Source: a virus (Duplodnaviria; Caudoviricetes). Taken from it: DNA of 26,724 nt. The DNA lies in IMG/VR virus record IMGVR_UViG_3300046779_000818, positions 1-26,724 of that record. One strand, written 5' to 3'. The notes below the pieces were generated by a model. It was given only the letters and a program-made list of their open reading frames with translations. It was not told where the DNA came from and did no database searches. A program made the translations under genes and the position numbers. Shown one piece after another: positions 2,467 through 26,724 of the stretch. Positions within the stretch are counted from its first letter, which is position 1. Each line of letters starts with the position of its first letter.

Positions 2467-2691
2467 ATGTTAAATCTAACAGAATTAGGTGTAGAAGTCT
2501 TCATTAAGAAGGCAAAGAACATATCACCATTTTGGGATAATTATGATCTAGTTATCTGGAAAAAAGATATTAACGGATTTACAAATATAAAGGGCATGTT
2601 TAAAGATACATGGGGGACGGCAGAAAGAATATCTGTCGACGCTAACGGAATATGGAAATTGCCCACAAAATATGTCAAGCATTTTAAGTAA
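2467..2691 (+). CDS. hypothetical protein
   Basis: ORF track; AGGA RBS; overlaps the next gene. Confidence 0.75.
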   Translation: MLNLTELGVEVFIKKAKNISPFWDNYDLVIWKKDINGFTNIKGMFKDTWGTAERISVDANGIWKLPTKYVKHFK

Positions 2692-2983
2692 TCTTGGAGT
2701 AGACGAAGAAGATTTTGATTGGCACGATTTAGCAGTATGTCGTGGAATGGATACAAATTTATTCTACGATAAATACGAATTAGATGTCAATATAGCAAAA
2801 AACATCGATGAGATGTGCTTTTCTTGTCCAGTAATGGAAATGTGTTACAGATCTGGAATAGAAAAAGATGAACATGGAGTTTGGGGTGGAGTTTATTTAA
2901 CTGCAGGCTCTATAGATAAAAGTAAAAATTTGCACAAAACATCTGAAGTATGGAAGAGGCTAAAGAAGAGAAATGTTTATTAA
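2672..2983 (+). CDS. whiB: WhiB family Fe-S transcription factor
   Basis: W...AVC-x-D..LF, CxxCPV..xC and GVWGG turn: the four-Cys WhiB signature. Confidence 0.9.
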   Translation: MSSILSNLGVDEEDFDWHDLAVCRGMDTNLFYDKYELDVNIAKNIDEMCFSCPVMEMCYRSGIEKDEHGVWGGVYLTAGSIDKSKNLHKTSEVWKRLKKRNVY

Positions 2984-13712: not shown

Positions 13713-13730
13713 AATTACTTCTATTTAGAT

Positions 13731-14015
13731 CTAAGGCAGTTTGATGTTATTGAATTGATTTGCTTGCTTTATCTTATCTACAAGTTGGTCTAGTTTATAT
13801 GCTATAGCAAGACCTTCGGAGACTTCTTGATGTCCCGCCCGTTCTTCATAGACACGAGCATTCTTCTCAATAATCCAGAGAACTACCTCCATGACCCTGT
13901 CGATAGTCCATATAGGTTGCTGTGATAGATAATATCCTAGACTTGCTGGATTGAAGTAATGGTCTTCTACTGAGTTTGCTAGTAGTTCTCCCACCTTGTG
14001 TTCTTTTGTTGCCAT
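13731..14015 (-). CDS. hypothetical protein
   Basis: ACGAAAGG RBS; ORF track. Confidence 0.8.
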   Translation of the reverse strand: MATKEHKVGELLANSVEDHYFNPASLGYYLSQQPIWTIDRVMEVVLWIIEKNARVYEERAGHQEVSEGLAIAYKLDQLVDKIKQANQFNNIKLP

Positions 14016-14038
14016 TGTATCCGCCTTTCGTTTTGTCG

Positions 14039-14060
14039 ATTATATCAGAAGGGGCTGACT
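14039..14060 (-). promoter_or_regulatory. variant PafBC-type promoter
   Basis: AGTCAG-N10-TATAAT (one mismatch); overlaps hairpin 14051-14072. Confidence 0.55.
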
Positions 14061-14089
14061 TTCGCCAGCCCCCGTCTCAATATATGAGA

Positions 14090-14236
14090 TTACTTCTTTG
14101 GGGTCTTGACTTCAGCTGAGAACTTAATTCCATTTTGTTCCGCCTCTGCCAAAGCCTGCTTCGCTGCACCTGAGAAACGGCCACGGCGGCCAACAGTAAT
14201 TCCCTTGCTTGCTAGATATTCACGCTTTGTTGTCAT
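14090..14236 (-). CDS. Lsr2 DNA-binding-domain-like small protein, 48 aa
   Basis: MTTKREYLASKGITVGRRGRFSGAAKQALAEAE: RE....G..V..RGR pattern of the Lsr2 C-domain; GAAAGGA RBS. Confidence 0.65.
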   Translation of the reverse strand: MTTKREYLASKGITVGRRGRFSGAAKQALAEAEQNGIKFSAEVKTPKK

Positions 14237-14267
14237 TTGTTTGATCCTTTCATGATCGGTTATATTT

Positions 14268-14296
14268 ATTATATCTGATATTCACGAATTTGTAAA
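14268..14296 (-). promoter_or_regulatory. sigma-A promoter for the Lsr2-like gene
   Basis: TTTACA-N17-TATAAT. Confidence 0.65.
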
Positions 14297-14313
14297 TACC
14301 CTCGTAAGAGAAA

Positions 14314-14553
14314 TTATTTGCCCTCAATTAGAATCCCATTTTCCATTGATGGCCATTCATCCTCTATATCTTTATTTAGTTGTATATCTACGAGCTCCAC
14401 CTCAATTGGTTCAATTACATCATCTGTTTCCAATTGAGACCACTTGTGGGACTCTAAATTTGCTGCTATGTCGTATGCCTGGTCCGCATCTGCCGCTTCT
14501 ACATTGACGGCATAATCGGACATAAGACGACCAATTACTTTAAATGTCTTCAA
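14314..14553 (-). CDS. acidic hypothetical protein
   Basis: TTG start after GAGGG; VEAADADQAYDIA. Confidence 0.7.
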   Translation of the reverse strand: MKTFKVIGRLMSDYAVNVEAADADQAYDIAANLESHKWSQLETDDVIEPIEVELVDIQLNKDIEDEWPSMENGILIEGK

Positions 14554-14773
14554 GTAATTCCCTCATTTCCCACTCTGCATATGTACGGACAATAAAGTCC
14601 TTACCTAGATTGTAGCAATATTCACAAGCATCTGTCAAGGACTCTGTCTCATATATTGGAAGCTGAACTGGTTCAATTCCTTCCTTATCATAGATCTCAA
14701 ATGTTCTAGTTCCTCCTGGTGATACATCGTATGCAATTTCCAGGATTTCTAAGCTTGGTGCATAATTACTCAT
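14540..14773 (-). CDS. hypothetical protein
   Basis: GGGGGA RBS; ORF track. Confidence 0.7.
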   Translation of the reverse strand: MSNYAPSLEILEIAYDVSPGGTRTFEIYDKEGIEPVQLPIYETESLTDACEYCYNLGKDFIVRTYAEWEMRELLEDI

Positions 14774-14894
14774 TTGGTCCCCCGTCCCTCTCGATAATAG
14801 ATCTAACTAAATCTTTAGCCAAATCTTCGTGCCCGTTTTGAATCCAGGCACGGGCTAATTCTAATTTGTAATTAATTAACTCCTGATCATTCAT
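14766..14894 (-). CDS. hypothetical protein, 42 aa
   Basis: MNDQELINYKLELARAWIQNGHEDLAKDLVRSIIERDGGPNE*; fills the operon gap. Confidence 0.65.
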   Translation of the reverse strand: MNDQELINYKLELARAWIQNGHEDLAKDLVRSIIERDGGPNE

Positions 14895-15219
14895 CATCTT
14901 CCTCCTCAACAAGTTCAATGATTTCCTGGTCAATCATCCAGTCACGTAGTGATTCATATAGGTCCTCAGTCCCATATTCTAAACTAAATCCATTTTTATC
15001 TGCCTGTGTCCAGAACAATTCCCAGACCTCTTCTTCACCCATGGTGACGCAGTACTCATCGTCTCCGCCTTCCTGAATGTCTCTGTATAGGTCCCTTGCA
15101 ACATCCCAAACATAAACCCAAACTAAGGGTTGTCCAACTGGGAGCACGGAAATCTTTTCAATGATGTCTTCGATATCATGATATACGTCCTGCATGCGTG
15201 TTTGTTCTTGTAGGTCCAT
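14887..15219 (-). CDS. acidic hypothetical protein
   Basis: TAATG overlap; ORF track. Confidence 0.75.
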   Translation of the reverse strand: MDLQEQTRMQDVYHDIEDIIEKISVLPVGQPLVWVYVWDVARDLYRDIQEGGDDEYCVTMGEEEVWELFWTQADKNGFSLEYGTEDLYESLRDWMIDQEIIELVEEEDDE

Positions 15220-15500
15220 TATTCTCCAGCCTCCCTTGCCGCCAAGGCAAAACTAATGTCGTATGTGTATTTGTACATCATTGTGAGAGCGTCTAGAAAT
15301 CCTTCTTCGTACTTACGCTCCATGGATTCCATTGCGTCTGAGTAGTCGTTCTCCTCCTCAATACGCTGTGCTTCTGCGTAACGGGCTTCTGCCTCCAGCA
15401 TGTCAATCTTTAATTGGCCATGCATGATATCAATGCCGCTAACTCCAGCCTCAACTAAGCGCTGTAGATGTGGGTCCAACTTGTCCGCCTGCTCTTGCAT
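15219..15500 (-). CDS. acidic hypothetical protein
   Basis: AAGGAG RBS; TAATG overlap. Confidence 0.75.
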   Translation of the reverse strand: MQEQADKLDPHLQRLVEAGVSGIDIMHGQLKIDMLEAEARYAEAQRIEEENDYSDAMESMERKYEEGFLDALTMMYKYTYDISFALAAREAGE

Positions 15501-15715
15501 TATTTCTCCTTTGTTTTGGCCAGTATATCACGAGCCACTGACAATAAGTGGGCGGTAGCAATGATTTGCCCGTTAGTAGAGATATCCTCAATCTCCAAAG
15601 CATGGTATTCATTTGATTCCATTTCCTCAAATAAATCCATTTCAACTTGTAGAGCCTCTGAATCTTGTTCTAAGCTAATTAAATGTAACTTCATATATTC
15701 GATCATTTCTTCCAT
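15500..15715 (-). CDS. acidic hypothetical protein
   Basis: TAATG overlaps. Confidence 0.75.
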   Translation of the reverse strand: MEEMIEYMKLHLISLEQDSEALQVEMDLFEEMESNEYHALEIEDISTNGQIIATAHLLSVARDILAKTKEK

Positions 15716-15885
15716 TATTCAAAATACCCCTCTGCCCATAAGCCTTGTAAGAACGATAAACTTGTTTTAAGTCCGCCTAGATTTCTATCAGAAATTGACG
15801 GGGTCTGAGAAGATTCTTCAATCTGAATAACTTCTGCTAATGAATCCATCATTATATTTAAATCCTCTAAGTCATAGCCTAGCAT
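15715..15885 (-). CDS. hypothetical protein, 56 aa
   Basis: MLGYDLEDLNIM...FLQGLWAEGYFE*; GAGGAGG RBS; TAATG overlaps. Confidence 0.75.
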   Translation of the reverse strand: MLGYDLEDLNIMMDSLAEVIQIEESSQTPSISDRNLGGLKTSLSFLQGLWAEGYFE

Positions 15886-16115
15886 TATGCCTCCTCATCA
15901 AACTCTAGATAATATTGGTTGTCAGGTTCTAAATCATAAAATTGATTAAACCTACCTTTTAGATAATTGCTAGATGACATATCTGCAATTCTCCAATCTG
16001 CATACAGTTGGCCTTCATCTAAATTAGAATTCATCCAATCATCTAACAATTGTTCTGCAATTTCTTGCAATTCAGCGTCAATCACCATTTGGTTTTCGTT
16101 TTCTAAGAAACTCAT
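15885..16115 (-). CDS. acidic hypothetical protein
   Basis: MSFLENENQMV...; ATGA overlap with the upstream gene. Confidence 0.75.
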   Translation of the reverse strand: MSFLENENQMVIDAELQEIAEQLLDDWMNSNLDEGQLYADWRIADMSSSNYLKGRFNQFYDLEPDNQYYLEFDEEA

Positions 16116-16885
16116 GCTTCCACCTTTTCTGTAGATTCCAATAATACCATGTGGGTCTGACATTCTTTCATAGCCTCTTCATCTCTCCATGAGCCCTCAT
16201 TACAAGATGAACAGAATTGACCACAATCATTATCGCAATAATCTAATGTATCATATGAATCACATGCATAACAACGTGTCTCATATTCCATGATTTCTTT
16301 TACTTCACCACGGACAATCTCTAGTTCTCCACCCCAACCCTGCTCTTCTTCGTATTCTAATGTAAGAAGAGAGTTAGGAACAAGATGAGACAACTTCTGC
16401 AAAACGGTGACGGCAGGAGACCAAGCAGTCTCATACTTATATACAAGCCAGTTGTCATAACCCTCTGACTTATATTCAATTAGTTCTGTGTTTGGATATT
16501 CATCCTCATCACGAACAGCGACATCCCATTTGGTTCCCCAGTTGGAATTGTTCCAAGAATACCAATCCTTTTGGGTCTTAGCAAACTCAACAGATTTGCG
16601 GAACCAATCAGGGTCTTTCATGTCGATATTGCCACGGTCAGGCTGGCATGCATATTCCTCATCTGTAATGCCGTCATCCTTATATGAGTGGATATTAAAG
16701 AAAGCAAAGACAGGATTAGAATACTCAACCTGCTTAATTTTGGTGGGGAAACCTGAAGATGAGATATCACCCATACCATATGTCTCTTGTGCTAAAGTAA
16801 ATGGACGATTCAGTCTTTCTTTGATAGAATCAATTTCCTCTTTTGGACCTTGAATTGTCAAGGTGTTATATACCCAATTTGGCAT
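16112..16885 (-). CDS. YubB/DUF1281 (Api92-like) ferredoxin-like domain protein with C-terminal Cys cluster
   Basis: MPNWVYN.L.I.G, WYSWN..NWGTKWD, YETAWSP, L.YEEE motifs; CxxC...CxxxC...CxxC tail. Confidence 0.75.
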   Translation of the reverse strand: MPNWVYNTLTIQGPKEEIDSIKERLNRPFTLAQETYGMGDISSSGFPTKIKQVEYSNPVFAFFNIHSYKDDGITDEEYACQPDRGNIDMKDPDWFRKSVEFAKTQKDWYSWNNSNWGTKWDVAVRDEDEYPNTELIEYKSEGYDNWLVYKYETAWSPAVTVLQKLSHLVPNSLLTLEYEEEQGWGGELEIVRGEVKEIMEYETRCYACDSYDTLDYCDNDCGQFCSSCNEGSWRDEEAMKECQTHMVLLESTEKVEA

Positions 16886-16912
16886 TGTATATCCTTTCGT
16901 TGATATGGCTTA

Positions 16913-16934
16913 ATTATACATTCCACCACTGACA
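16913..16934 (-). promoter_or_regulatory. PafBC/RecA-NDp-type promoter
   Basis: TGTCAG-TGGTGGAATG-TATAAT. Confidence 0.75.
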
Positions 16935-17063
16935 ATTGTCTATAGAATATCCCTGTGATGCCCACCACATTTGATCGAGCTCGATCTCAAATTGTGGAAT
17001 TTTAGGGAAAATACTTGACACTCGTAAATAGCATATGCTACCCTCACCATCTGAGGGCAAAGC

Positions 17064-17210
17064 AAAAACCCCAGGAAAGCTACTGGGGGTTTTAAAAGTA
17101 GGGCTGCTAGTCAAACGAAAGGAATTAAGTAAACCTGCTTTACTTAGCGACTTGGTGATTATACCTAATTAGCCGCACCCTACTACTCAATGAACAGGTC
17201 ACACGGACCT
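17064..17210 (-). ncRNA. candidate structured small RNA with anti-RBS segment
   Basis: TATAAT 17217-17222; closing stem AGTAGGG/CCCTACT; hairpin TAAGTAAA/TTTACTTA; segment AUUCCUUUCGUUUG; terminator CCCCAG/CTGGGG+UUUUU; no convincing ORF. Confidence 0.55.
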
Positions 17211-17227
17211 ATTCATATTATAGCATA

Positions 17228-17635
17228 TTAGTTGACTAGCATTTCATCAAGCGCATACTTCTCACAGAATGTCGAAAGGTCCATTGTGAATAGCGCCTCA
17301 TTCTTCATTCCACGGACCTTGTTCTCCGTATTACGGAAATCATCCTCTTCATGAAGACTGAATGTCTGTTGCTCCCAGTCAACGATAGCAATCTTGTGCT
17401 CGTTGTCTGAAATCTCATTTACATGTAGACCGAATCCAGTCTCCATGTTCCAGTCATTACCAATGATATTGCTAATTGCTATACGTGTTGCATATGCTGG
17501 GTCATTCCAACGTGGACGAGCAGCGATGACGGCGTCCGCTAGTTTGCCTAACATCTGATGTCCTGCCCAGTGTCCATATAGTACGATTGTATTTCCATTC
17601 GGCTGTACAAATCCGAAATTTGCTCTATCTCCCAC
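17228..17635 (-). CDS. hypothetical phage protein
   Basis: GTG start, GAGGT RBS; MGDRANFGF...LYGHWAG. Confidence 0.8.
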   Translation of the reverse strand: MGDRANFGFVQPNGNTIVLYGHWAGHQMLGKLADAVIAARPRWNDPAYATRIAISNIIGNDWNMETGFGLHVNEISDNEHKIAIVDWEQQTFSLHEEDDFRNTENKVRGMKNEALFTMDLSTFCEKYALDEMLVN

Positions 17636-17637
17636 CG

Positions 17638-17847
17638 TTATACCTCTTCCTTTTCTATTACGGGTGTTTCTTCTGTCTTATTCAATTGTATAATTTCAAA
17701 GGCCTTTTTGTCAAGGGCCTCTTTATTCTTATTATAATGATGCCCGCAGAATGCAAGCTCACCCTCTATAAGTTTAACTAAATATAAAGCTTGGGCGGAA
17801 CCACATTGGTCACAGCCAATCCACTTATTTAGATCCTCAGAGGTCAT
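17638..17847 (-). CDS. small zinc-binding protein (CDxC...FCGHH)
   Basis: CDQCGSAQA...LAFCGHH, a pattern seen in small actinobacterial proteins. Confidence 0.7.
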   Translation of the reverse strand: MTSEDLNKWIGCDQCGSAQALYLVKLIEGELAFCGHHYNKNKEALDKKAFEIIQLNKTEETPVIEKEEV

Positions 17848-17992
17848 AATCTACAGTCCCAAATTCGATTTGGTCGGCAATGTCATCATAAACTTGTCCG
17901 TCATCAGATGATTCAGCCCATAATCTAATATTGGCAATAATAACCTCACGGGCAAACTTGACACCGTCTTCAAAACCGTCTTGGTAATCCAT
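17837..17992 (-). CDS. hypothetical protein
   Basis: AGGAG RBS before MDYQDGFEDG. Confidence 0.7.
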   Translation of the reverse strand: MDYQDGFEDGVKFAREVIIANIRLWAESSDDGQVYDDIADQIEFGTVDYDL

Positions 17993-17993
17993 T

Positions 17994-18206
17994 TTATCTC
18001 CTAGTATATCCTGTTGGTTCGTATTCAGATACATAAGTTTCTGTTAGATTATATGTATCTCGTATTGAACTTACTTTCTCAATACTACCAGTTCCGATAT
18101 TGAATGTCAATGGTGCAATTAATTGTGGGTCTAACCCAACAATCTCCGCTGACCAGTAGGCCCTTTGCAGGGCCAACTGGTTTGGAGCAGTTAATTCAAA
18201 ATACAT
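17994..18206 (-). CDS. hypothetical protein
   Basis: TAATG overlap; MYFELTAP... Confidence 0.7.
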   Translation of the reverse strand: MYFELTAPNQLALQRAYWSAEIVGLDPQLIAPLTFNIGTGSIEKVSSIRDTYNLTETYVSEYEPTGYTRR

Positions 18207-18853
18207 TAGTAACTCACGTCCGAATCTTCTACTGTCCAAGATTCGACAACAACGTCTCCATTGTATGCATCAAGAGTTAAAGTATCCTGTAGGAAGTAAT
18301 GTGCATCAAAATCTTCTACCTCTTCTAGAGGAATGTCGTAGTCGATTTCAAATGAAATAGTTCCAGTAATGCGAACTGTTTGCTTTGGCTCGTGACCAAG
18401 AATTTCGCATAGGTCATTGAGAACTTCTAACTTCTCGTAGTTTGGATTATACCAACCGTCGGCAGAAAGATTATCAAGAATCTTGCTAATCTGTCCATTG
18501 CTAATCGCTAACTGGTCTTGTAGTCGGCGGTATGAATCAAGATGAATCTCTAATTCATTTACCTTCATTGTAGGGTAAGTTACCTCACCATTATTAATTG
18601 ACTTATATGTTACCAAGGTATTAGCATCATATGAGTATGGAGCCGTGCTTGTTGTTTCCATTTCATTCCTTTCGTTTGTTGGTGTAATTGTAGCATCATG
18701 TACTGACAAAAGAATTGGGACACGCCCACATGGACATGTGATGTTATTCACACTTCCAGACGGGAATCCAAATCCATCTCTGGATGTAAATTCGATCAAT
18801 GAGTCACATTCATTTGGGTCACATGCGTACGTATATTTAGTCCAGGTTGTCAT
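18206..18853 (-). CDS. hypothetical protein; long leaderless form (start 18853) and short internal form (start 18661)
   Basis: ATG 7 nt after TATAAT (18861); internal promoter and ACGAAAGGA RBS precede the in-frame ATG at 18661. Confidence 0.7.
   Translation of the reverse strand: MTTWTKYTYACDPNECDSLIEFTSRDGFGFPSGSVNNITCPCGRVPILLSVHDATITPTNERNEMETTSTAPYSYDANTLVTYKSINNGEVTYPTMKVNELEIHLDSYRRLQDQLAISNGQISKILDNLSADGWYNPNYEKLEVLNDLCEILGHEPKQTVRITGTISFEIDYDIPLEEVEDFDAHYFLQDTLTLDAYNGDVVVESWTVEDSDVSY
18687..18708 (-). promoter_or_regulatory. PafBC-type promoter, intragenic
   Basis: TGTCAG-TACATGATGC-TACAAT. Confidence 0.7.
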
Positions 18854-18860
18854 GCTGAGA

Positions 18861-18882
18861 ATTATACAGGCCCACACTGACA
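18861..18882 (-). promoter_or_regulatory. PafBC-type promoter
   Basis: TGTCAG-TGTGGGCCTG-TATAAT. Confidence 0.75.
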
Positions 18883-18979
18883 TTTACAAGGATTTCCAGG
18901 GAATTTCTTTGTGATACGTAACACAAAAAATTGGCCTTTAGATCTGCGGGCGTCTCACATATTGATATTGAAATCTCAG

Positions 18980-19053
18980 CGATTCGTACGGGACTTGAAC
19001 CCGTGATCTCTACCGTGACAGGGTAGCGCTTTATCCAACTAAGCTAACGAACC
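18980..19053 (-). tRNA. tRNA-Asp (GTC), CCA not encoded
   Basis: Acceptor GGTTCGT/ACGAATC, D arm, anticodon stem CTACC/GGTAG with loop CT-GTC-AC, T loop GGTTCAAGTCC. Confidence 0.95.
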
Positions 19054-19058
19054 GTGTG

Positions 19059-19086
19059 GAGCAGTTTTAAATCATGCTCAGGATTT
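19059..19086 (-). ncRNA. compact H-type pseudoknot, copy 1
   Basis: AAATC-CT-GAGCA-T-GATTT-AAAAC-TGCTC. Confidence 0.55.
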
Positions 19087-19094
19087 TGCGTTAA

Positions 19095-20102
19095 TTAAAA
19101 CGCTTTTACTACTTGCAGAATTTTATTTTTTTCTGCGGTAATAATTGGGTCGAATCCTGAAGCAGAAGCCCACTTAGATTCGTTATTATTTTTCCGAGTT
19201 GGTCGGAAATAATCTAGGCGTTCAGTTAGAGCGTTGAATGCGCCCCACTTTGTGCCTTTGATATTAGCGTTAGTTGGTGAGTTATGATAAAGGTCATCAA
19301 GCAAAACGACTTTATTTTCCCACTTAGTCAAAGCCAACTTAGACTTATCTTCAGGCTTAGGATAAATTGTTTTGATAAGGTCAGAGAATTCCTTATCAGT
19401 AATTTCCTGCTTGAAGAGTTCCTGCGCTTCTTTTTCGAATGCGTCAAAGTATCCAAGAGTAAGCCCAAGAGTTTCACGAGCAATTTGAATCTTGCCGTCT
19501 GCGGTCTGCGTGTGGCGAATCTTGAAAGATTGCTTAGCAGACTTCATCGCAAGATTTAGAGTGTTTTGGCATACAACACGAACAGGAGTAATTGCAGCCT
19601 GAACAGCAACAGAACCATCATGAGATGTCCAAACAATAAGATACAATTTTGTCTTATCGTTAGCACCTTGTGGGTCTAGCACCATTTCACGAGGAACAGT
19701 AAGAGAGCCGAATACGACTTTACCATTCTTTAGAGAACCAGCAGATTCCCAAGCACAGCGAGAATCTCCGTCTAAGATATTGTCTGCGAATGAGAATAGT
19801 TCTTCATTCTGCACGACTTTATAGCGAGAACCAACAACAGAGAGAACATCAGTTCCGCTATTGAATGGATTTGTGCGGGTTACATATTGAGCACCGCTAG
19901 TATCATTCCAAGATTCTGGAATATAATCAGCAACAGGAGAAAGCGAAACATTCCAATTAGAAAGTTTTGCTTCATCAAGCATTAGTTGAGTAGAAACCGC
20001 TTCATCTTGTGAGAAGATTCGGTTAGCGAGATTGTGCCATGCAGGAGTTCCACGCAAAGCGAAAGCGACTTCGTCGCCATTTGTTTCAAGGTTATGAGCC
20101 AT
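19095..20102 (-). CDS. DUF932 / TIGR03299 phage-plasmid protein
   Basis: MAHNLE...AWH.L, Y.VVQN.E.F, ESAGSL..G..VF, SHDGS..V....TPVRVVCQNTLN.A, RHT, T.WGAFNALTE. Confidence 0.9.
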   Translation of the reverse strand: MAHNLETNGDEVAFALRGTPAWHNLANRIFSQDEAVSTQLMLDEAKLSNWNVSLSPVADYIPESWNDTSGAQYVTRTNPFNSGTDVLSVVGSRYKVVQNEELFSFADNILDGDSRCAWESAGSLKNGKVVFGSLTVPREMVLDPQGANDKTKLYLIVWTSHDGSVAVQAAITPVRVVCQNTLNLAMKSAKQSFKIRHTQTADGKIQIARETLGLTLGYFDAFEKEAQELFKQEITDKEFSDLIKTIYPKPEDKSKLALTKWENKVVLLDDLYHNSPTNANIKGTKWGAFNALTERLDYFRPTRKNNNESKWASASGFDPIITAEKNKILQVVKAF

Positions 20103-20134
20103 GAATTTTTCCTTTCAGTTAGGTTGATTTAGCA

Positions 20135-20156
20135 ATTATAGCAGGGGGGTCTGACA
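20135..20156 (-). promoter_or_regulatory. PafBC-type promoter
   Basis: TGTCAG-ACCCCCCTGC-TATAAT. Confidence 0.75.
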
Positions 20157-20223
20157 TTATCAATAGTTAGATGTAATATGTCCGAATTGTCTCAGGTGAT
20201 CAATCTCACAAAATTTTACGGCG

Positions 20224-20254
20224 TTTTCCACAGCTTTCGTAAGGCTGTGGATAA
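20224..20254. promoter_or_regulatory. inverted pair of DnaA boxes
   Basis: TTTTCCACA (20224) and TGTGGATAA (20246, perfect TTATCCACA on minus). Confidence 0.55.
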
Positions 20255-20285
20255 CCCCCCACGTCTGCGGGCCTAGCTTGGGAAA

Positions 20286-20321
20286 TGGGGCGGGATTGAA
20301 ATGCATTAAGATCCCGCCCCA
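20286..20321 (-). terminator. terminator-like hairpin
   Basis: TGGGGCGGGAT / ATCCCGCCCCA just after the stop at 20328. Confidence 0.65.
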
Positions 20322-20327
20322 AGATTA

Positions 20328-20570
20328 TTAGCCAAGCAATTTAGTTAGTTCTGTTTTCTTTGGGATAACTTCCATCGGTAAATAAACTGCTGTTGTTTTC
20401 TTTTTCTTTAGTTGGTCATAAACATAAGCACGAACATTACCAGAGAAGCGGCGGAGATTGGAAAAAACTAATTCCGTTAAGTATTCTTTATCAACACCTT
20501 GCTCTGAATAAATAGTAAGGTCGTTGTCCTTGTTCTCATCATAGATTTCTACACGAAAACGATTTTTCAT
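20328..20570 (-). CDS. hypothetical protein
   Basis: AAAGGA RBS; TATAAT at 20598-20603. Confidence 0.8.
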   Translation of the reverse strand: MKNRFRVEIYDENKDNDLTIYSEQGVDKEYLTELVFSNLRRFSGNVRAYVYDQLKKKKTTAVYLPMEVIPKKTELTKLLG

Positions 20571-20607
20571 TTTGTTCCTTTGTTAGTAGGGATTAGAATT
20601 ATAGCAT

Positions 20608-20633
20608 GGGGGCTAGATTTTTGTCTAGCCCCC
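20608..20633 (-). terminator. hairpin overlapping the next promoter
   Basis: GGGGGCTAGA / TCTAGCCCCC. Confidence 0.6.
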
Positions 20634-20643
20634 TACTATTTAT

Positions 20644-21063
20644 TTATAGATAACGAGCAACTGCGTTATAAGTTGAAGTATTTACAACTTCCTCGTCGGT
20701 CATCTTGAGAATACGAATTGCGTTCTCAATTTCCTCTTTCTGCTCACGATACTGCCACTCATGGAAAGTAATGTAATCCTTAGTTGGTTCAGCAGGAATT
20801 ACAAAAGTTCCAGCAGGTAGAGAGAAAGATACATTTATCTCACCATTGTAGCGAGTATGAGCAGACAAGTTTTCTGCCTTAGAGATTTTATCAAGGGCAA
20901 GTTTCGCAACTTCCTTGTTCCACTTCTCTACTGCCTTCTTGTGCTTAGCCTCGTTTGCTTCTTGCGAAACATAGTCTTTATTTAGTTTTTCAAGCGCACC
21001 TTCTAGTGCCTTGATTACCTTAGTTGTAGCGATTTTTACGCTAATTGCTTTTCCTCTTGCCAT
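20644..21063 (-). CDS. hypothetical protein
   Basis: ACGAAAGGG RBS; ORF track. Confidence 0.85.
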   Translation of the reverse strand: MARGKAISVKIATTKVIKALEGALEKLNKDYVSQEANEAKHKKAVEKWNKEVAKLALDKISKAENLSAHTRYNGEINVSFSLPAGTFVIPAEPTKDYITFHEWQYREQKEEIENAIRILKMTDEEVVNTSTYNAVARYL

Positions 21064-21102
21064 CTGTTTATTTCCCTTTCGTTAGTTGTTTGTTTAGCCA
21101 AT

Positions 21103-21124
21103 AGTATAGCGGATACCACCGACA
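21103..21124 (-). promoter_or_regulatory. PafBC-type promoter
   Basis: TGTCGG-TGGTATCCGC-TATACT. Confidence 0.75.
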
Positions 21125-21133
21125 AAAATTGCG

Positions 21134-21160
21134 GAGTAGTTTATAGACATACTCAGGTCT
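21134..21160 (-). ncRNA. compact H-type pseudoknot, copy 2
   Basis: AGAC-CT-GAGTA-T-GTCT-ATAAAC-TACTC. Confidence 0.55.
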
Positions 21161-21169
21161 TATCTTTAT

Positions 21170-21322
21170 TTAGTTAGATACGCTAGTCCAGCGTTCTGTC
21201 CCATTTACATCAAGCAAGACACGATTTACACCGCTTGGGTGATTATCTACTGCTTTGATTACTCCGACAACACCGCTCTTTGCGGTTGTAATTGTCTGTC
21301 CGATTTCTAGGGTTGTGCTCAT
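21170..21322 (-). CDS. small beta-rich (SH3/KOW-like) protein, 50 aa
   Basis: MSTTLEIGQTITTAKSGVVGVIKAVDNHPSGVNRVLLDVNGTERWTSVSN*; ACGAAAGGA RBS. Confidence 0.75.
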   Translation of the reverse strand: MSTTLEIGQTITTAKSGVVGVIKAVDNHPSGVNRVLLDVNGTERWTSVSN

Positions 21323-21352
21323 TTTGTTTCCTTTCGTTAGTTTGAGAGTTGA

Positions 21353-21374
21353 ATTATAGCAGAGCCCACCGACA
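21353..21374 (-). promoter_or_regulatory. PafBC-type promoter
   Basis: TGTCGG-TGGGCTCTGC-TATAAT; CRP-type palindrome at 21393-21408. Confidence 0.75.
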
Positions 21375-21399
21375 TTTAGTAGGCTCTGCCTGTGTGAGT

Positions 21400-21675
21400 T
21401 TAGTCACAATTCGGTAGCCATGCGTCTAAGTGGTGTTGTTCCACGATAGCATGGGCGGGCGCATACTTATCTCCACGATAAAATACACCTTCAGGCATTT
21501 CGATCAGTTTGTTGTAGTCCTCGTCCCAATAAGCGTCAATAGCCTCGATACAAGGCTCAACCATTGAGAGCGGGACGGGTGGGTAATGATTACCCTGTAA
21601 GTGATAACCAATAGCAGTTTCTAGGTCTAAGCCTAGCTCATCTGACGCAAGGTCATAAGCGAGATTACTCCCCAT
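21400..21675 (-). CDS. hypothetical protein
   Basis: GAGGT RBS; HLQGNHYPPVP...HHLDAW. Confidence 0.8.
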   Translation of the reverse strand: MGSNLAYDLASDELGLDLETAIGYHLQGNHYPPVPLSMVEPCIEAIDAYWDEDYNKLIEMPEGVFYRGDKYAPAHAIVEQHHLDAWLPNCD

Positions 21676-21940
21676 TGTTCAATACCTCATCTCTCATTGT
21701 TTCGATTTCGGTGATACTTTCAATTAGTTCTCTGAATTGTGTTTCAGTTAGTAATACTTTAGTAACTTTATCAGTTACGGCAGAAGCAATTTCGGTAGCA
21801 TACATGAACATGGCTTTAGCCATTTCATCTTGCGAAAAATCGTTTCGGTTATGAACAATATAAGAAGCCATTAGCATCTGGCTTTCACCAATTATGCCTT
21901 CCTCAGTTGCGTTTAGTAGAGCAGAAGCGGTAGATAACAT
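21665..21940 (-). CDS. hypothetical protein
   Basis: ACGAAAGGA RBS. Confidence 0.8.
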   Translation of the reverse strand: MLSTASALLNATEEGIIGESQMLMASYIVHNRNDFSQDEMAKAMFMYATEIASAVTDKVTKVLLTETQFRELIESITEIETMRDEVLNNGE

Positions 21941-21968
21941 TTATTTCCTTTCGTTGTGCGGTGGGTAG

Positions 21969-21990
21969 ATTATACACCTACCCACCGACA
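21969..21990 (-). promoter_or_regulatory. PafBC-type promoter inside a 10-bp inverted repeat
   Basis: TGTCGG-TGGGTAGGTG-TATAAT. Confidence 0.75.
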
Positions 21991-21993
21991 TTT

Positions 21994-22245
21994 TTACGCT
22001 AGGGCTAAGTAAGCCTGACCGTAGCCCTCATTTACACGGTCAAGTTCGTCTTGAATTTCAGACCTAGACATGAGAGATACTTTTCCGATTAACTCACGGA
22101 TAGCGCCCTCGTTCATTAGAGTAAATACGGAAGCAGGCATACGAGATACTTGCTGATACATAGAGCCATTAGGGTCTAATAAAGATACGAATTCCACACC
22201 ATCAACGGTGAATGGATACGATTTCCAGTTTGCGAATTGAGACAT
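21994..22245 (-). CDS. hypothetical protein
   Basis: ACGAAAGGT RBS. Confidence 0.8.
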   Translation of the reverse strand: MSQFANWKSYPFTVDGVEFVSLLDPNGSMYQQVSRMPASVFTLMNEGAIRELIGKVSLMSRSEIQDELDRVNEGYGQAYLALA

Positions 22246-22273
22246 TTTTTACCTTTCGTTTGTCGATAGCGCA

Positions 22274-22295
22274 ATTATAGCGTAACCCACCGACA
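22274..22295 (-). promoter_or_regulatory. PafBC-type promoter
   Basis: TGTCGG-TGGGTTACGC-TATAAT; perfect CRP-type site at 22333-22348. Confidence 0.75.
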
Positions 22296-22411
22296 TTTAC
22301 TAATCGAGCTTCGGCGTGTCGTAAATTTATTTTGTGATAAATTTCACAAAATCCAGGGCGTGTCGTAACTTGACGTAACAGGAGTTTTGCCCCCACTCCT
22401 TTGCGGGCCCT

Positions 22412-22525
22412 TTACTCCTCCTGGTCCCAAATGTCAGGATCGACTTCTTTTAAATATTTTTTCGCAGCTTCTCGTTCCTCTTCTGATCCAAGGACCGTGG
22501 CCATTAATGCATTAAAGTATTTCAT
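22412..22525 (-). CDS. hypothetical protein, 37 aa
   Basis: AAAGGAG RBS before MKYFNALM. Confidence 0.65.
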   Translation of the reverse strand: MKYFNALMATVLGSEEEREAAKKYLKEVDPDIWDQEE

Positions 22526-22535
22526 TTCTTCTCCT

Positions 22536-23276
22536 TTATTTTTTAGTTGCGCTAAATCTAACATCTGCTTTTCCATATACACAAAGTCCGCATGATACGC
22601 AGGCGGAACCATTAGTTGAAATTAACGGAATTTGTTTATTATTCTCAGGACACTTAGCACCAGGCTTTCCGATTAAATCTTTCATGGTACTTTCGGTGAC
22701 TGCAAAAGTTTTTCCTAGATACGCTAATTTAATACCGTCGTTATTTTTGCGTAAGTCATGAGCAATTTCTTTATTCTCATCGTCGGTAGAGAAATAAAGA
22801 GATAAGTTAGGAATATCCTTAAGAATAAGCGCTGCAGACTTTACACGTGTATATACCCAGAATTGAATATCAGGCTGTTCCTCAATTACTAAGCGCCATG
22901 CTTGTGCATACTCATCGTTAAAGAAATCGCCATCCCAGTGAATGCGGAATAACATCTTAGCATTGCGCTTAACACAATCAGCCTTGAAATCTGCAATCAT
23001 TTCGGAAAGTAGAGAATACATCCCCATACGGTCTTCATTACGTAGTAGGTCCCAGTTATGCAGAAGAGTTGCTTTTACTCCCTTATAAACTTTTTCGAGC
23101 TTACCAGCGTAGCAAACACTTTCACAGATAGACGTTGCGCCAGGACATGAATAGTTTTTTCCTGCAGGTAGGCCGAAGGTGTTGGCAATTGTTGGAGTTT
23201 TTCCATTTGGGGAGACGGCATTAGCGACCTTTCTATCGTTAGAACGTTTTAATTTAGACGAGTTCAAAGTAGTCAT
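22536..23276 (-). CDS. GP88 family protein (radical-SAM-like Cys cluster)
   Basis: FGLPAG..SCPGAT..C...CYA, FRIHWDGDFF, FWVYTR, LSLYFS.D, C-terminal CP...ACVSCGLC. Confidence 0.8.
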   Translation of the reverse strand: MTTLNSSKLKRSNDRKVANAVSPNGKTPTIANTFGLPAGKNYSCPGATSICESVCYAGKLEKVYKGVKATLLHNWDLLRNEDRMGMYSLLSEMIADFKADCVKRNAKMLFRIHWDGDFFNDEYAQAWRLVIEEQPDIQFWVYTRVKSAALILKDIPNLSLYFSTDDENKEIAHDLRKNNDGIKLAYLGKTFAVTESTMKDLIGKPGAKCPENNKQIPLISTNGSACVSCGLCVYGKADVRFSATKK

Positions 23277-23403
23277 GAGTTCCTTCCAATTCGTCAAAAG
23301 TTTTTTCATGAGCCCATTCTTGATAGTGAATAACACATAGATTATTAGGCTTAATTGAATAGGCAGTTAGCCCGTGAGCATTTCCATAGCATACAGCGCA
23401 CAT
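23254..23403 (-). CDS. small zinc-binding protein, 49 aa
   Basis: MCAVCYG...LCVIHYQEW; ACGAAAGGG RBS. Confidence 0.7.
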   Translation of the reverse strand: MCAVCYGNAHGLTAYSIKPNNLCVIHYQEWAHEKTFDELEGTHDYFELV

Positions 23404-23428
23404 AAGTTTTCCCTTTCGTTATGCGGTA

Positions 23429-23450
23429 ATTATAGCGGATAGCACCGACA
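23429..23450 (-). promoter_or_regulatory. PafBC-type promoter
   Basis: TGTCGG-TGCTATCCGC-TATAAT; perfect CRP-type site at 23468-23483. Confidence 0.75.
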
Positions 23451-23556
23451 AAAACTAATCTATTTGTTGTGAGAGATCTCACAAAATTTCAGGGTGTGTT
23501 GGTACTTGACGTAACGATGATCATGCCCCCACAGCTTGTGCGGGCTAGTTGAATTT

Positions 23557-23682
23557 TCAACTACTTTTATTTTTGTGTTTTCGTTTTCGTGAATAAACTT
23601 TTTTACTAGGGATCGGAGTGGCCGCATTACTGCGGCGCAACTCCAAAACTTTTTTTATTCTTTCTTTATTTGGTAATTTCAT
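23557..23682 (-). CDS. small basic protein, ArfA/BrfA-like
   Basis: MKLPNKERIKKVLELRRSNAATPIPSKKVYSRKRKHKNKSS*; AAAGGA RBS. Confidence 0.55.
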   Translation of the reverse strand: MKLPNKERIKKVLELRRSNAATPIPSKKVYSRKRKHKNKSS

Positions 23683-23699
23683 TTTCTGTCCTTTTTATT

Positions 23700-23888
23700 T
23701 TAGTTGGTGAAAGTTGGAATTTTGTAATTGCTTGCGTCATAAAAACGATTTGCGTCAAATCGTGGATTATCTTTCGCAAACATCTCCGCAAAATCTACAA
23801 CCATTTTAGAAAAAACGGCTGGGTGTGTTTTATCTGAAACATACTTTAGAATTTCTGCAGTTGCAACATAGTCTTTTCGTGTCATCAT
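23700..23888 (-). CDS. hypothetical protein
   Basis: MMTRKDYVATAEIL...DNPRFD..RF; TAATG overlap. Confidence 0.8.
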   Translation of the reverse strand: MMTRKDYVATAEILKYVSDKTHPAVFSKMVVDFAEMFAKDNPRFDANRFYDASNYKIPTFTN

Positions 23889-24091
23889 TATCGCTTTACT
23901 ACCTTTCCGTTTCGGTGAAAAATCTTTGTGTAGCATTTGCCACTTGGTGTAAATAAGTTAATTGTTGCATACTCATCAGCAAAACCCCAATCAACAAACT
24001 TAGCAAACTCCTCATGAGCATTTAACTCATCTGAGTATTCTTTTGACCAATGAGGTGCATTTTCATCATAGGCAACTGAAATCTTATACAT
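23888..24091 (-). CDS. hypothetical protein
   Basis: MYKISVAYD...; TAATG overlaps. Confidence 0.75.
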   Translation of the reverse strand: MYKISVAYDENAPHWSKEYSDELNAHEEFAKFVDWGFADEYATINLFTPSGKCYTKIFHRNGKVVKR

Positions 24092-24225
24092 TACAAACCC
24101 CACACATCTAATGCACAATCGCATTGTTCTACATCATAATTATTTTCATCTCCCCAAAATAGGAAGCCAGCACCACCACACTCATCACAAGCAACGGCGA
24201 TTATTTCTTTTACATCTTTTACCAT
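24091..24225 (-). CDS. small zinc-ribbon protein, 44 aa
   Basis: CDECGGAG...CDC; ACGAAAGGA RBS. Confidence 0.7.
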   Translation of the reverse strand: MVKDVKEIIAVACDECGGAGFLFWGDENNYDVEQCDCALDVWGL

Positions 24226-24254
24226 TTTAGTTTTCCTTTCGTTTTGTTGTTGGT

Positions 24255-24276
24255 ATTGTATCAGTTAGCACTGACA
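24255..24276 (-). promoter_or_regulatory. PafBC-type promoter
   Basis: TGTCAG-TGCTAACTGA-TACAAT. Confidence 0.75.
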
Positions 24277-24278
24277 AA

Positions 24279-24401
24279 TTAGAGAGCACCCTCTTGAAAT
24301 AAACCGATTTCAAGAGTTAGCATTTCATCGGGAGTGGCTTCGGATAAATCTACCCAGCCAGCACCCTGCTCATCAAGTCTAAAAATTTCAATGTATCCCA
24401 T
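24279..24401 (-). CDS. hypothetical protein, 40 aa
   Basis: MGYIEIFRLDEQGAGWVDLSEATPDEMLTLEIGLFQEGAL*. Confidence 0.7.
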   Translation of the reverse strand: MGYIEIFRLDEQGAGWVDLSEATPDEMLTLEIGLFQEGAL

Positions 24402-24403
24402 TA

Positions 24404-24592
24404 TTACTCACCAACCTTTACGGCTAGTGTGCGGAATTTTCCATTTGATAATTCTACGAGATAACTCTCGCAACCATCATACCAAACTGCGTGAGGGTGT
24501 TTCTCAGCATGGACAATTTTGCTTTCGGTTGAACGAGAGCGATAAGTTTTTCCTACAAGTAGGTTTTCGATTGTATAGACATTTGCGGACAT
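24404..24592 (-). CDS. hypothetical protein
   Basis: ACGAAAGGTGG RBS before MSANVYTIENLLVGK. Confidence 0.75.
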   Translation of the reverse strand: MSANVYTIENLLVGKTYRSRSTESKIVHAEKHPHAVWYDGCESYLVELSNGKFRTLAVKVGE

Positions 24593-24623
24593 AGTTTCCA
24601 CCTTTCGTTTTTGTTATGCCGTA

Positions 24624-24645
24624 ATTATAGCCTACGGGTCTGACA
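24624..24645 (-). promoter_or_regulatory. PafBC-type promoter
   Basis: TGTCAG-ACCCGTAGGC-TATAAT; perfect CRP-type sites at 24695 and 24823. Confidence 0.75.
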
Positions 24646-24841
24646 TTTTTCTACTTACTAGCCAGTAATTCCATATTTTGAGACGCTCAGCCCGTGTGAT
24701 AAAAATCACAAGATCTTCGGCGTGTCGCAGGATTTTTAGGGGATTTCTTAAATCGGACATAAGGGACAAATTGCCCCCATAGCTTTTGCGGGCCGTGTCA
24801 AGTCGACACGCCGTTGTGTCGATGTGAAATGTATCACACGA

Positions 24842-24931
24842 TTATTCGTGGATACATTCCGATTCGATCTCATGACCGAATTCATCTACGAGTTCCTCGT
24901 AGATTTCATCCATGTAATCTAAGAAATCCAT
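24842..24931 (-). CDS. 29-aa acidic peptide
   Basis: MDFLDYMDEIYEELVDEFGHEIESECIHE*; GAAAGGA RBS; TAATG overlap. Confidence 0.6.
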   Translation of the reverse strand: MDFLDYMDEIYEELVDEFGHEIESECIHE

Positions 24932-25035
24932 TATTCGTTTTCCTTTCTAATAGTAGCGGATAGAACGGCAAGGGCTTCCGCCTTGCTTGCTTCACGTTGT
25001 GCTTCAACGTGCTTTTTGAATTCGTCTAAATTCAT
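24931..25035 (-). CDS. 34-aa peptide
   Basis: MNLDEFKKHVEAQREASKAEALAVLSATIRKENE*; TAATG overlaps. Confidence 0.6.
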   Translation of the reverse strand: MNLDEFKKHVEAQREASKAEALAVLSATIRKENE

Positions 25036-25223
25036 TATGCTAACCAACTTTCTTTTGTATAAGATAACCATTCACCAAGAGTCATTAAACCCTTGTATTC
25101 ATTACAATTTCCGCAGTAAAAACTTCCTGCGTAGTCTGAGCAAAAAACGCAGACGATTTGATTTGCTTCATCAGCAGAAACATTAGCGAGAGTAATCTCT
25201 CTGATTTGATTTAGTGTAGTCAT
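25035..25223 (-). CDS. small zinc-ribbon protein
   Basis: GAAAGGT RBS before MTTLNQ; CVFC...CGNCNEYKG. Confidence 0.75.
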   Translation of the reverse strand: MTTLNQIREITLANVSADEANQIVCVFCSDYAGSFYCGNCNEYKGLMTLGEWLSYTKESWLA

Positions 25224-25275
25224 TTTAACTACCTTTCTTTTAACGATTAAAACCTTATTTAATCTTGATACTAGT

Positions 25276-25297
25276 ATCCTAACATAGACCACTGACA
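25276..25297 (-). promoter_or_regulatory. PafBC-type promoter
   Basis: TGTCAG-TGGTCTATGT-TAGGAT. Confidence 0.7.
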
Positions 25298-25349
25298 TTT
25301 TGACCCGTTTTTCGGGCGTGTCGCAAAACTATTTTTGTGATTTAGGTCA

Positions 25350-25411
25350 TGTGGATAACTTACGCTCAATTTTTAAGGGATTTCCACACCTGTGTATAAA
25401 GCTGTGGATAA
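25350..25411. promoter_or_regulatory. DnaA-box cluster
   Basis: TGTGGATAA (25350), ATTTCCACA (25380), TGTGTATAA (25391), TGTGGATAA (25403). Confidence 0.6.
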
Positions 25412-25476
25412 CGCCCGCAAAAGACTGCGGGCCGATCTGACAAAGTCAAATCGACACGCCGTTAGGCGTATGTGAT

Positions 25477-25623
25477 TTACGCCTCTTCTTTATCTCGCAT
25501 CGCTAAGCGCCAAGACCAAATAAGGGCGGGGATACCAATAAGCAAATAGGTAGGGATATTAGCGTATAGCCCTAAGAAATCGGAATTTATATATAGAAAT
25601 TCTGTAGTTAGTTCTAGTGTCAT
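25477..25623 (-). CDS. small membrane protein, 48 aa
   Basis: MTLELTTEFLYINSDFLGLYANIPTYLLIGIPALIWSWRLAMRDKEEA*. Confidence 0.65.
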   Translation of the reverse strand: MTLELTTEFLYINSDFLGLYANIPTYLLIGIPALIWSWRLAMRDKEEA

Positions 25624-25809
25624 TTACTTATCTCCAAACATATTAAATACTTCATCTAATTCATCATCTGTTAAGTGGTCTATCTGTATAGCCTTAGTAA
25701 AGCCGAAGATATCCTCTTCTTCTTCTACTAGTTGCTCATATTGTTCTTCTTCATCCATCCAAACATAAGCATCTTTAACATCTTCTTGAATTGTATCCCA
25801 CTTAGTCAT
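25624..25809 (-). CDS. acidic hypothetical protein
   Basis: TAATG overlap; ORF track. Confidence 0.75.
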   Translation of the reverse strand: MTKWDTIQEDVKDAYVWMDEEEQYEQLVEEEEDIFGFTKAIQIDHLTDDELDEVFNMFGDK

Positions 25810-25973
25810 TACTTGTTATCCTGTTCTACTTTAGAGATGAACGCCTCAAACTTAGGCTTTACATCTGTGCTGTTTAGTTCTTTAATTGTATCCATTACCT
25901 CTGACATTTTCTTAGCGGTAAATCCTGTGCCCTTGCATAGAGAGCCTTGCCATACTGAGTAAGTGATTTTCAT
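25809..25973 (-). CDS. hypothetical protein, 54 aa
   Basis: MKITYSVWQGSLCKGTGFTAKKMSEV... Confidence 0.7.
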   Translation of the reverse strand: MKITYSVWQGSLCKGTGFTAKKMSEVMDTIKELNSTDVKPKFEAFISKVEQDNK

Positions 25974-26009
25974 TTATTGTTCTTCTTTCTGTTAGTTTCT
26001 AATAAGATT

Positions 26010-26031
26010 AAGGTACATCATAGGTCTGACA
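26010..26031 (-). promoter_or_regulatory. PafBC-type promoter
   Basis: TGTCAG-ACCTATGATG-TACCTT. Confidence 0.7.
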
Positions 26032-26059
26032 TTTTCAAGTCTATTTAGTGTGGTGTTGC

Positions 26060-26317
26060 TCACATATTGCAAGCCACACCCTCGCTATGTAGTCCGCTTA
26101 GGTAGTGACCTTTAGCGATACAATTTTTAGCTAAATCATGAAACGATTTGCATTTCATCTCATGCCATAAGATGTAGTCCTTATGCACTACCTTATCGCA
26201 AGTAGAGCAGAAGTGCCACTTATGGTTATCCTTGCGGACTACTTGACCCTCTACGATTTCGTAGCGGTCAATAAACTTAGCACCATGTGTGCAATTATTC
26301 TTTAGGCACTTGTTCAT
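26060..26317 (-). CDS. Cys/His-rich zinc-binding protein
   Basis: C...CTH...CSTC...HEMKC...C..GH...H..AC. Confidence 0.7.
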   Translation of the reverse strand: MNKCLKNNCTHGAKFIDRYEIVEGQVVRKDNHKWHFCSTCDKVVHKDYILWHEMKCKSFHDLAKNCIAKGHYLSGLHSEGVACNM

Positions 26318-26318
26318 A

Positions 26319-26531
26319 TTAAGCACCTACTTTCTGAGAGAGTACCCATTTACTCTCATTAGGTGATAGGTACTTGTGAGAGATAAGGTTCTCACTTGCT
26401 ACCATATAGACATATGCCATACGGCTAATGTAGTTACCATTAGCAAGGCGGAAGATATTGTTATCCTTAGTGTTACTAGAGGATAGAGCATGAGTAGGTT
26501 CTACTACTACTGAGATTATAGTGTTAGTCAT
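26319..26531 (-). CDS. hypothetical protein
   Basis: ACGAAAGGT RBS. Confidence 0.75.
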   Translation of the reverse strand: MTNTIISVVVEPTHALSSSNTKDNNIFRLANGNYISRMAYVYMVASENLISHKYLSPNESKWVLSQKVGA

Positions 26532-26580
26532 TTTGACCTAACCTTTCGTGTTGAGACTTTCTCAACTTCTTATGTATATA

Positions 26581-26602
26581 ACTCTACATGAGGGGTCTGA
26601 CA
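26581..26602 (-). promoter_or_regulatory. PafBC-type promoter
   Basis: TGTCAG-ACCCCTCATG-TAGAGT; perfect CRP-type sites at 26637 and 26663. Confidence 0.7.
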
Positions 26603-26724
26603 TTTTCAAGGGGACAATTCGGACATATTAGGACATTGTGAGGTAGGTCACATGGTTTTTTCTGTGAGTTAAGTCACATATGGGCGCACTAATTAGACAA
26701 ATCGGACATTTTAAAATCGTGGAT

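Follow-up and report, generated by a model that had tools for sequence, protein, structure and literature searches.

The stretch of DNA analyzed here, called the window throughout, is a virus record of 26,724 nucleotides (26.7 kb; IMGVR_UViG_3300046779_000818) with a GC content of about 39%, derived from an uncultured actinobacterial phage of lake water. Its leftward arm (13731..26602, minus strand), delimited by open reading frame (ORF) and family scans, holds about 40 small ORFs, most of them without a family, and is studded with the element TGTCRG-N10-TAnnnT, a pattern that corresponds to promoters of the regulator PafBC. The window contains 17 exact matches, every one of them on the minus strand and within 15522-26602; chance would give 0.46 ± 0.66 matches per window (100 shuffles; largest count, 3). 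The site array is real and strongly non-random. A sequence-only reading of this DNA had listed 14 minus-strand sites and one variant. All 14 are exact at the positions given, three more were found (15522, 16141, and 25885), and the variant at 14039 keeps both the GTC triplet and the spacing. The sites are listed below; each was found by pattern search unless noted.

14039..14060, minus strand: variant AGTCAG-N10-TATAAT ahead of ORF 13731-14015 (found by inspection)
15522..15543, minus strand: PafBC-type site at the 3' end of ORF 15500-15715, absent from the earlier list
16141..16162, minus strand: PafBC-type site at the 3' end of ORF 16112-16885, absent from the earlier list
16913..16934, minus strand: PafBC-type site, with TAGACA at 18 bp (pattern and promoter scoring)
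18687..18708, minus strand: PafBC-type site
18861..18882, minus strand: PafBC-type site, with no ribosome-binding word near
20135..20156, minus strand: PafBC-type site ahead of the DUF932 gene, with TTGATA at 17 bp (pattern and promoter scoring)
21103..21124, minus strand: PafBC-type site
21353..21374, minus strand: PafBC-type site
21969..21990, minus strand: PafBC-type site; a perfect 10-bp inverted repeat (21960-21990) flanks the -10 box
22274..22295, minus strand: PafBC-type site
23429..23450, minus strand: PafBC-type site ahead of the GP88 cassette
24255..24276, minus strand: PafBC-type site
24624..24645, minus strand: PafBC-type site
25276..25297, minus strand: PafBC-type site
25885..25906, minus strand: PafBC-type site within ORF 25809-25973, absent from the earlier list
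26010..26031, minus strand: PafBC-type site, with TTGAAA at 17 bp and a weak -10 box
26581..26602, minus strand: PafBC-type site, a hybrid with TTGAAA at 17 bp (pattern and promoter scoring)

The spacer had been described as fixed in length, and this holds in the window. Spacers of 8, 9, and 13 nt give no match, a spacer of 11 nt gives one on the plus strand within a gene, and the two matches at 12 nt are shifted readings of spacer-10 sites. Two other claims stood in part. Each site had been placed directly ahead of a gene cassette; a Shine-Dalgarno-like word does lie within 120 nt downstream of 14 of the 17, but not at 18861, 25885, and 26010, and the sites at 15522, 16141, and 25885 overlap ORFs. 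The plus arm had been said to use TTGAC-type promoters instead. Its positions 1-13700 indeed carry TTGAC-type promoters and no TGTCRG-N10-TAnnnT match, but three TTGAC-type promoters lie in the minus arm as well (14609, 17685, and 18082), and promoter scoring shows that 5 of the 17 sites double as sigma-70-type promoters with a -35-like hexamer. Hairpin promoters of the N4 type were considered and rejected, as a long inverted repeat accompanies 1 of the 17 window sites and is thus a minority feature. In the relatives, inverted repeats of at least 6 bp number 25 versus 13 of 300, and those of at least 8 bp number 11 versus 0.

Conservation was assessed in 80 IMG/VR loci and two cultured-phage regions, a set of 82 sequences that are related and include some near-duplicates. 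With the 10-nt spacer, the gene strand has 887 matches and the opposite strand 12. Spacers of 7, 8, 9, and 11 nt yield 18, 21, 12, and 2 matches, and the 109 matches at 12 nt are read as a shifted shadow of the spacer-10 sites. Among the 80 loci, at least 10 sites are found in 56, 5-9 in 5, and 1-4 in 4. In each of five complete relatives (107-120 kb), the arm strand bears 14-19 sites, almost all of them packed into a block of about 10 kb; together they have 83 arm-strand matches versus 5 on the other strand and 9 for a reversed control. By estimate, about 820 stored viral stretches contain a stricter form of the motif.

Two side observations concern the same loci. A higher-GC (43-48%) group of lake phages (L053, L057-L063, L065, L070-L075, and L077) lacks the array, and some of its members have many DnaA-type boxes instead. 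Fourteen LexA-type boxes occur in the 80 related loci (L045, L046, L051, L052, L056, L058-L063, and others), several of them identical to the host recA box.

The motif had been assigned to the PafBC promoter class, and the assignment is borne out. It equals the consensus tGTCgg(N10)tA(N3)T in the available text of PMC8635444, according to which R46 and R50 of PafB read the GTC triplet; the -26 element with this triplet is present at 17 of 17 window sites by definition of the pattern, and also at the variant at 14039. In addition, the plausible hosts described below possess PafBC and carry the same motif at recA. In the available portion of PMC11804915, assembly of the PafBC-RNA polymerase complex requires both single-stranded DNA (ssDNA) and PafBC promoter DNA; tails left by end resection are put forward there as a local ssDNA source that could activate it, and sigma adaptation is noted as a strategy shared with other factors, AfsR among them. 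The phage sites resemble the RecA-NDp mycobacterial promoters, as far as these two partial sources (PMC8635444, PMC11804915) present them, in their -26 GTC element, 10-nt spacer, sigma-A-type -10 box, and usual lack of a -35 box. They differ in that they lie on a phage genome, in 14-19 copies per arm, ahead of small genes of no family rather than repair genes. Their -10 boxes are also stronger, no LexA-type box is present in the window, and CRP-type boxes stand in phase upstream. The promoter class is a known one; its setting is new.

A WhiB-family gene outside the arm marks the host as actinobacterial. Candidate hosts were taken from 351 Actinomycetes genomes, of which 42 have a rhodopsin match and 24 of those measure 1.3-1.7 Mb; a few of the 24, with higher GC, are probably other lineages. 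The target of what we take to be the acI probe is present in 4 of 4 genomes having a 16S gene, of 5 tested, and a phylum-wide genome sample contained no identifiable acI genomes. A check of plausible hosts for PafBC, proposed with the sequence-only reading, was positive. PafB is found in 23 of the 24 small genomes, with a single match to the PafB query in each of the 23, and pafC mostly follows directly after the PafB gene. Alignment of 10 PafB sequences shows both DNA-reading arginines (R46 and R50 in M. smegmatis) in every one. Upstream of recA, the motif occurs at spacer 10 in 22 of 23 small host genomes and at spacers 8, 9, 11, and 12 in none; the 23rd region has TGTCGT at an equal offset. 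Genes downstream of host sites were surveyed for 42 of the 69 sites from five genomes (four genomes covered) and include recA, CarD, a 3'-5' exonuclease, and LysM proteins, together with what our domain reading suggests is a RadA-like ATPase. At 17 of these 42 sites, an ORF starts 6-7 nt past the -10 box in a leaderless-like arrangement, although the starts were called mechanically and some are doubtful. Phage (n = 525) and host (n = 54) 22-mers also resemble each other at the ten spacer positions that the motif leaves free (correlation of base profiles, r 0.61; column-permutation p 0.002). As a separate observation, one host site (L308, G519:C1:424788) has a full TATAAT and a phage-like ribosome-binding word downstream, and many host sites cluster near this chromosome region, ahead of methylase, ATPase, and antitoxin-like genes.

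From these sequence comparisons, we estimate a probability of roughly 0.7 that host PafBC reads the 17 putative phage promoters. In the proposed mechanism, host sigma-A RNA polymerase, with host PafBC bound at the TGTCRG (-26) element, would transcribe the arm, and a block of small, probably first-injected genes would thereby be switched on via the host's ssDNA alarm. The arm would be a long terminal repeat that is expressed first. Local ssDNA could be supplied by the resected end of the incoming linear DNA or by DNA damage from infection or ultraviolet light. A few hybrid sites with -35 boxes at the head of the arm may fire without PafBC and prime the rest, while CRP, WhiA, and DnaA boxes might tune output to the state of the host.

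Several observations weigh against reading by host PafBC. No site is present in 15 of the 80 related loci, and the host recA sites and the phage loci are sets of related sequences rather than independent trials. Over five whole host genomes, the bare pattern hardly exceeds its reversed control (11-16 versus 9-16). Three attempts to identify the host directly were not decisive. A thioredoxin scan of genome contigs returned unrelated phyla at 36-52% identity and was rejected, and the phage surface protein has no match in the 351 Actinomycetes genomes. A DNA search matched 53 of the 351 genomes, including 23 of the 24 small ones, almost only via a Lys/Ala low-complexity repeat and tRNA-Asp; because the matches are nearly confined to these two features, they are treated as an effect of composition and not as host evidence. 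The promoters themselves appear strong. Phage -10 boxes are nearer to TATAAT than host ones (mean 5.07 versus 3.65 of 6 positions), an extended -10 TG occurs at 393 of 699 phage sites, and a TTG-type -35 hexamer matching 5 of 6 positions lies at 17-18 bp in 92 of 699. Finally, candidate regulators are encoded by the phages. A WhiB gene is present in both the window and the complete relative G002, and a conserved helix-turn-helix (HTH) protein of 46 amino acids (aa), with a sub-cut-off match to sigma region 4, follows ruvC in 5 of 5 complete relatives.

L524 1483-1623 (G002): 46-aa HTH protein, with homologues in G001 and G003-G005 (sigma-region-4 search)

Putative boxes for other host regulators share the arm. 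Twelve TGTGA-N6-TCACA palindromes (at most one mismatch; eight exact) are present versus 0.99 expected, as are seven GACACGCC boxes versus 0.13 expected and four DnaA-box-like TTWTCCACA words versus 0.78 expected, a count reached in 1 of 100 shuffles. We take TTWTCCACA to be the DnaA box. Their positions, all from pattern searches and given without strand, are as follows.

16954..26678: CRP/GlxR-type palindromes at 16954, 18737, 18910, 20195, 21393, 22333, 23468, 24695, 24823, 26049, 26637, and 26663
18719..25460: GACACGCC WhiA-type boxes at 18719, 22313, 22357, 24719, 24805, 25315, and 25453
20224..25411: DnaA-box-like TTWTCCACA at 20224, 20246, 25350, and 25403

For 11 of the 12 window palindromes, the center lies between -53.5 and -96.5 relative to the start predicted for the following PafBC-type site. 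Across 81 sequences, 319 exact palindromes are found at N6 and at most 4 at any other spacer, and a palindrome lies within about 200 nt upstream of 370 of 720 promoter contexts. All 31 exact palindromes of the five complete genomes are in the arm or at its head. The centers cluster near -54, -64, -74, -85, and -95 from the assumed start, with a helical phasing of R 0.65 at 10.4 bp (n = 86, 10 loci), a value that 0 of 20000 uniform draws reach. The available text of PMC2844151 gives TGTGANNNNNNTCACA as the CRP consensus and describes Class I CRP-dependent promoters, which likewise have TGTGA-N6-TCACA boxes on one helix face upstream; their centers are at -61.5, -71.5, -81.5, and -91.5, whereas the phage centers are those given above and the phage core is of the PafBC type. 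GACACGCC corresponds to the M. tuberculosis WhiA consensus in the accessible part of PMC13473873. One CRP-family protein and a WhiA are encoded by each of five candidate hosts (5 of 5). A further word, GGCCCGC, occurs four times on the minus strand (20267, 22403, 24788, and 25427), each time heading a long non-coding cassette with WhiA, DnaA, or CRP-type boxes.

The strength of the phage promoters raises an alternative that we consider unlikely, namely that sigma-A fires them alone through strong or extended -10 boxes and that the -26, CRP, WhiA, and DnaA boxes act mainly as decoys for host regulators or provide a small boost. Because the -10 boxes are near consensus and frequently extended, and because some sites have -35 boxes, sigma-A might fire many of them unaided, and the crowding of four different host-type boxes in one arm would suit a decoy. 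Promoter strength thus allows PafBC-independent basal firing. The -35-like hexamers are concentrated at the first and second arm sites (15 of 30 loci each, versus 29 of 384 middle sites), a distribution that hints at priming of the remaining sites from the arm's head. However, a decoy needs neither placement on one strand, nor a fixed 10-nt spacer to the -10 box, nor a ribosome-binding word downstream, and PafBC, per the available portion of PMC11804915, joins RNA polymerase only on its own promoter DNA with ssDNA. The helical phase of the CRP-type boxes with the predicted start also speaks against a decoy and fits activation.

A reader encoded by the phage is rather improbable. The sequence-only reading had allowed for a phage WYL homologue, an idea left unsupported by the complete relatives, as neither the WYL family nor a PafB profile finds a match in 5 of 5 (the PafB search had no positive control); WYL and sigma families also have no match among the 81 window ORFs scanned. 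T4 MotA and AsiA redirect the host sigma factor, and the 46-aa HTH protein, WhiB, or an unrecognized small protein could read the TGTCRG element in a similar way. The weak sigma-region-4 match in all five complete relatives would be consistent with such a role, as would the lack of a family for most arm genes. Pfam finds WhiB as the sole transcription factor among 149 ORFs of G002, a scan confined to ORFs of at least 60 aa that do not cross the 20-kb cuts, and a PHROG search of 101 ORFs chosen from G001 and G002 gives no further transcription factor. The HTH protein, however, is also present in 83 cultured-phage records, is shared with BE/BK and Rhodococcus phages, and is 67% identical in BillNye, a phage with 0 sites. 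Moreover, the phage element mirrors the spacer preferences of the host, and were the arm the first part to be expressed, a phage reader would have to be injected rather than newly made. Another host activator with the same -26 geometry, either a WYL paralogue or an unrelated sigma-adapting factor, seems very improbable to us. Many actinobacteria have several PafC-like matches, and sigma adaptation by factors such as AfsR (PMC11804915, available portion) provides a precedent, but the PafB query finds just one match in each of the 23 streamlined genomes, where the motif also accompanies recA.

Reading by host PafBC would make the host alarm itself the infection switch of a lytic phage. WYL-domain ssDNA sensors are host tools for DNA repair and anti-phage defense. 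In some of the most abundant bacteria of fresh water, damage to host DNA (caused, for instance, by sunlight near the surface) would then determine when infection proceeds, and loss of pafBC is predicted to block or slow such phages. A broader model can be offered only tentatively, at somewhat worse than even odds. In it, an abundant clade of lytic lake actinophages would place its first-expressed genes under host sensors, with PafBC as the core switch thrown by the resected end of incoming DNA, and with phased CRP, WhiA, and DnaA boxes gating expression on energy and cell cycle. Lysis could then be deferred in idle cells, and cultured Microbacterium cluster EC phages would use the same switch for recombination genes. 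Phages of Alphaproteobacteria controlled by CtrA offer a parallel, termed "lytic deferment" in the available text of PMC9437464, in that a host regulator has sites in the phage promoters, through which host state can be sensed. The regulator and signal differ (cell cycle versus ssDNA), and in the present case the host factor would define the core promoter.

Cultured phages were represented by 14 whole actinophage genomes and nine part-regions of Microbacterium phages. No site array is present in the 14 genomes, which have 0-4 exact sites each. The closest cultured relatives are Streptomyces cluster BE/BK phages (Stanwilliamsviridae), with identities of about 49% for DUF932, about 55% for GP88, and about 54-61% for the capsid protein, the last of these taken from G002. 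BE phages have terminal repeats of about 11 kb with an lsr2-like gene inside (PMC5764925), and DUF932 also sits in the repeat. With a related capsid (via G002), DUF932, and an Lsr2-like gene in common, the arm of the window is likely the counterpart of the BE long terminal repeat. Cultured BE/BK members differ in having 0-2 exact sites per genome and TTG-type -35 promoters. TGTC stands at the PafBC offset within 4 of 12 such promoters in the Jay2Jay terminal repeat (L081 1-11000), 1 of 16 in Karimac, and none in BK or Rhodococcus relatives.

The motif recurs in Microbacterium phages. ClearAsMud has three exact sites on the coding strand, 17-58 nt ahead of exonuclease, ERF, and gp60 genes; among the part-regions, Megan has two sites and Kozie none. 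A search of seven further regions at several spacers and on both strands gave nine exact matches, all with spacer 10 and all on the coding strand; the Cressida and MementoMori regions have no site. The cluster EC-type sites (MT657336.1 32853, 33996, and 37218, L513; also L515, L517-L520, and L523) stand ahead of RecE-like exonuclease, ERF, and DUF932-region genes. A small gene with a sigma-factor annotation is also present in the Microbacterium phages that have sites. A different 18-bp motif has been described in these phages, and the available main text of that paper does not contain the words "promoter" or "TGTC" (PMC7302621). As the motif occurs in cultured Microbacterium phages, its function can be tested at the bench now, and cluster EC phages are a possible model. 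A literature search by titles and abstract openings, with most subscription journals outside it, found no paper on phage promoters of the PafBC class. PMC12848934, in its available text, cites Rafique et al. 2025 as linking pafBC with mycobacteriophage resistance, a point in favor of the decoy reading.

Beyond the promoter array, family scans of the 81 window ORFs gave four notable matches, and a tRNA/Rfam scan found one tRNA and no structured RNA beyond it.

2672..2983, plus strand: WhiB-family gene, outside the arm (family match)
14090..14236, minus strand: Lsr2-like small protein (PHROG 6269, E 1.5e-9)
18979..19053, minus strand: tRNA-Asp(GTC) (tRNA/Rfam scan)
19095..20102, minus strand: DUF932 protein (family match)
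22536..23336, minus strand: GP88 family protein (family match)

The link of the Lsr2-like protein to BE phages rests on its PHROG match, given that tblastn of the window protein found no match in cultured phages. A DNA-run search recovered the whole or part of the window in 20 runs, mostly freshwater metagenomes. Contig depth in the arm is about twofold in 2 of 3 DNA-type runs and mixed in the third, a faint hint of a terminal repeat; contig depth is not equivalent to copy number. At the convergence of both arms, 13200-13730 is an AT-rich stretch of about 500 bp without convincing ORFs and represents a candidate physical genome end. On the plus strand, 7430-8557 encodes an Ala/Thr-rich protein with a signal-like N-terminus and a predicted Ig-like fold, whose Atlas neighbors are viral.

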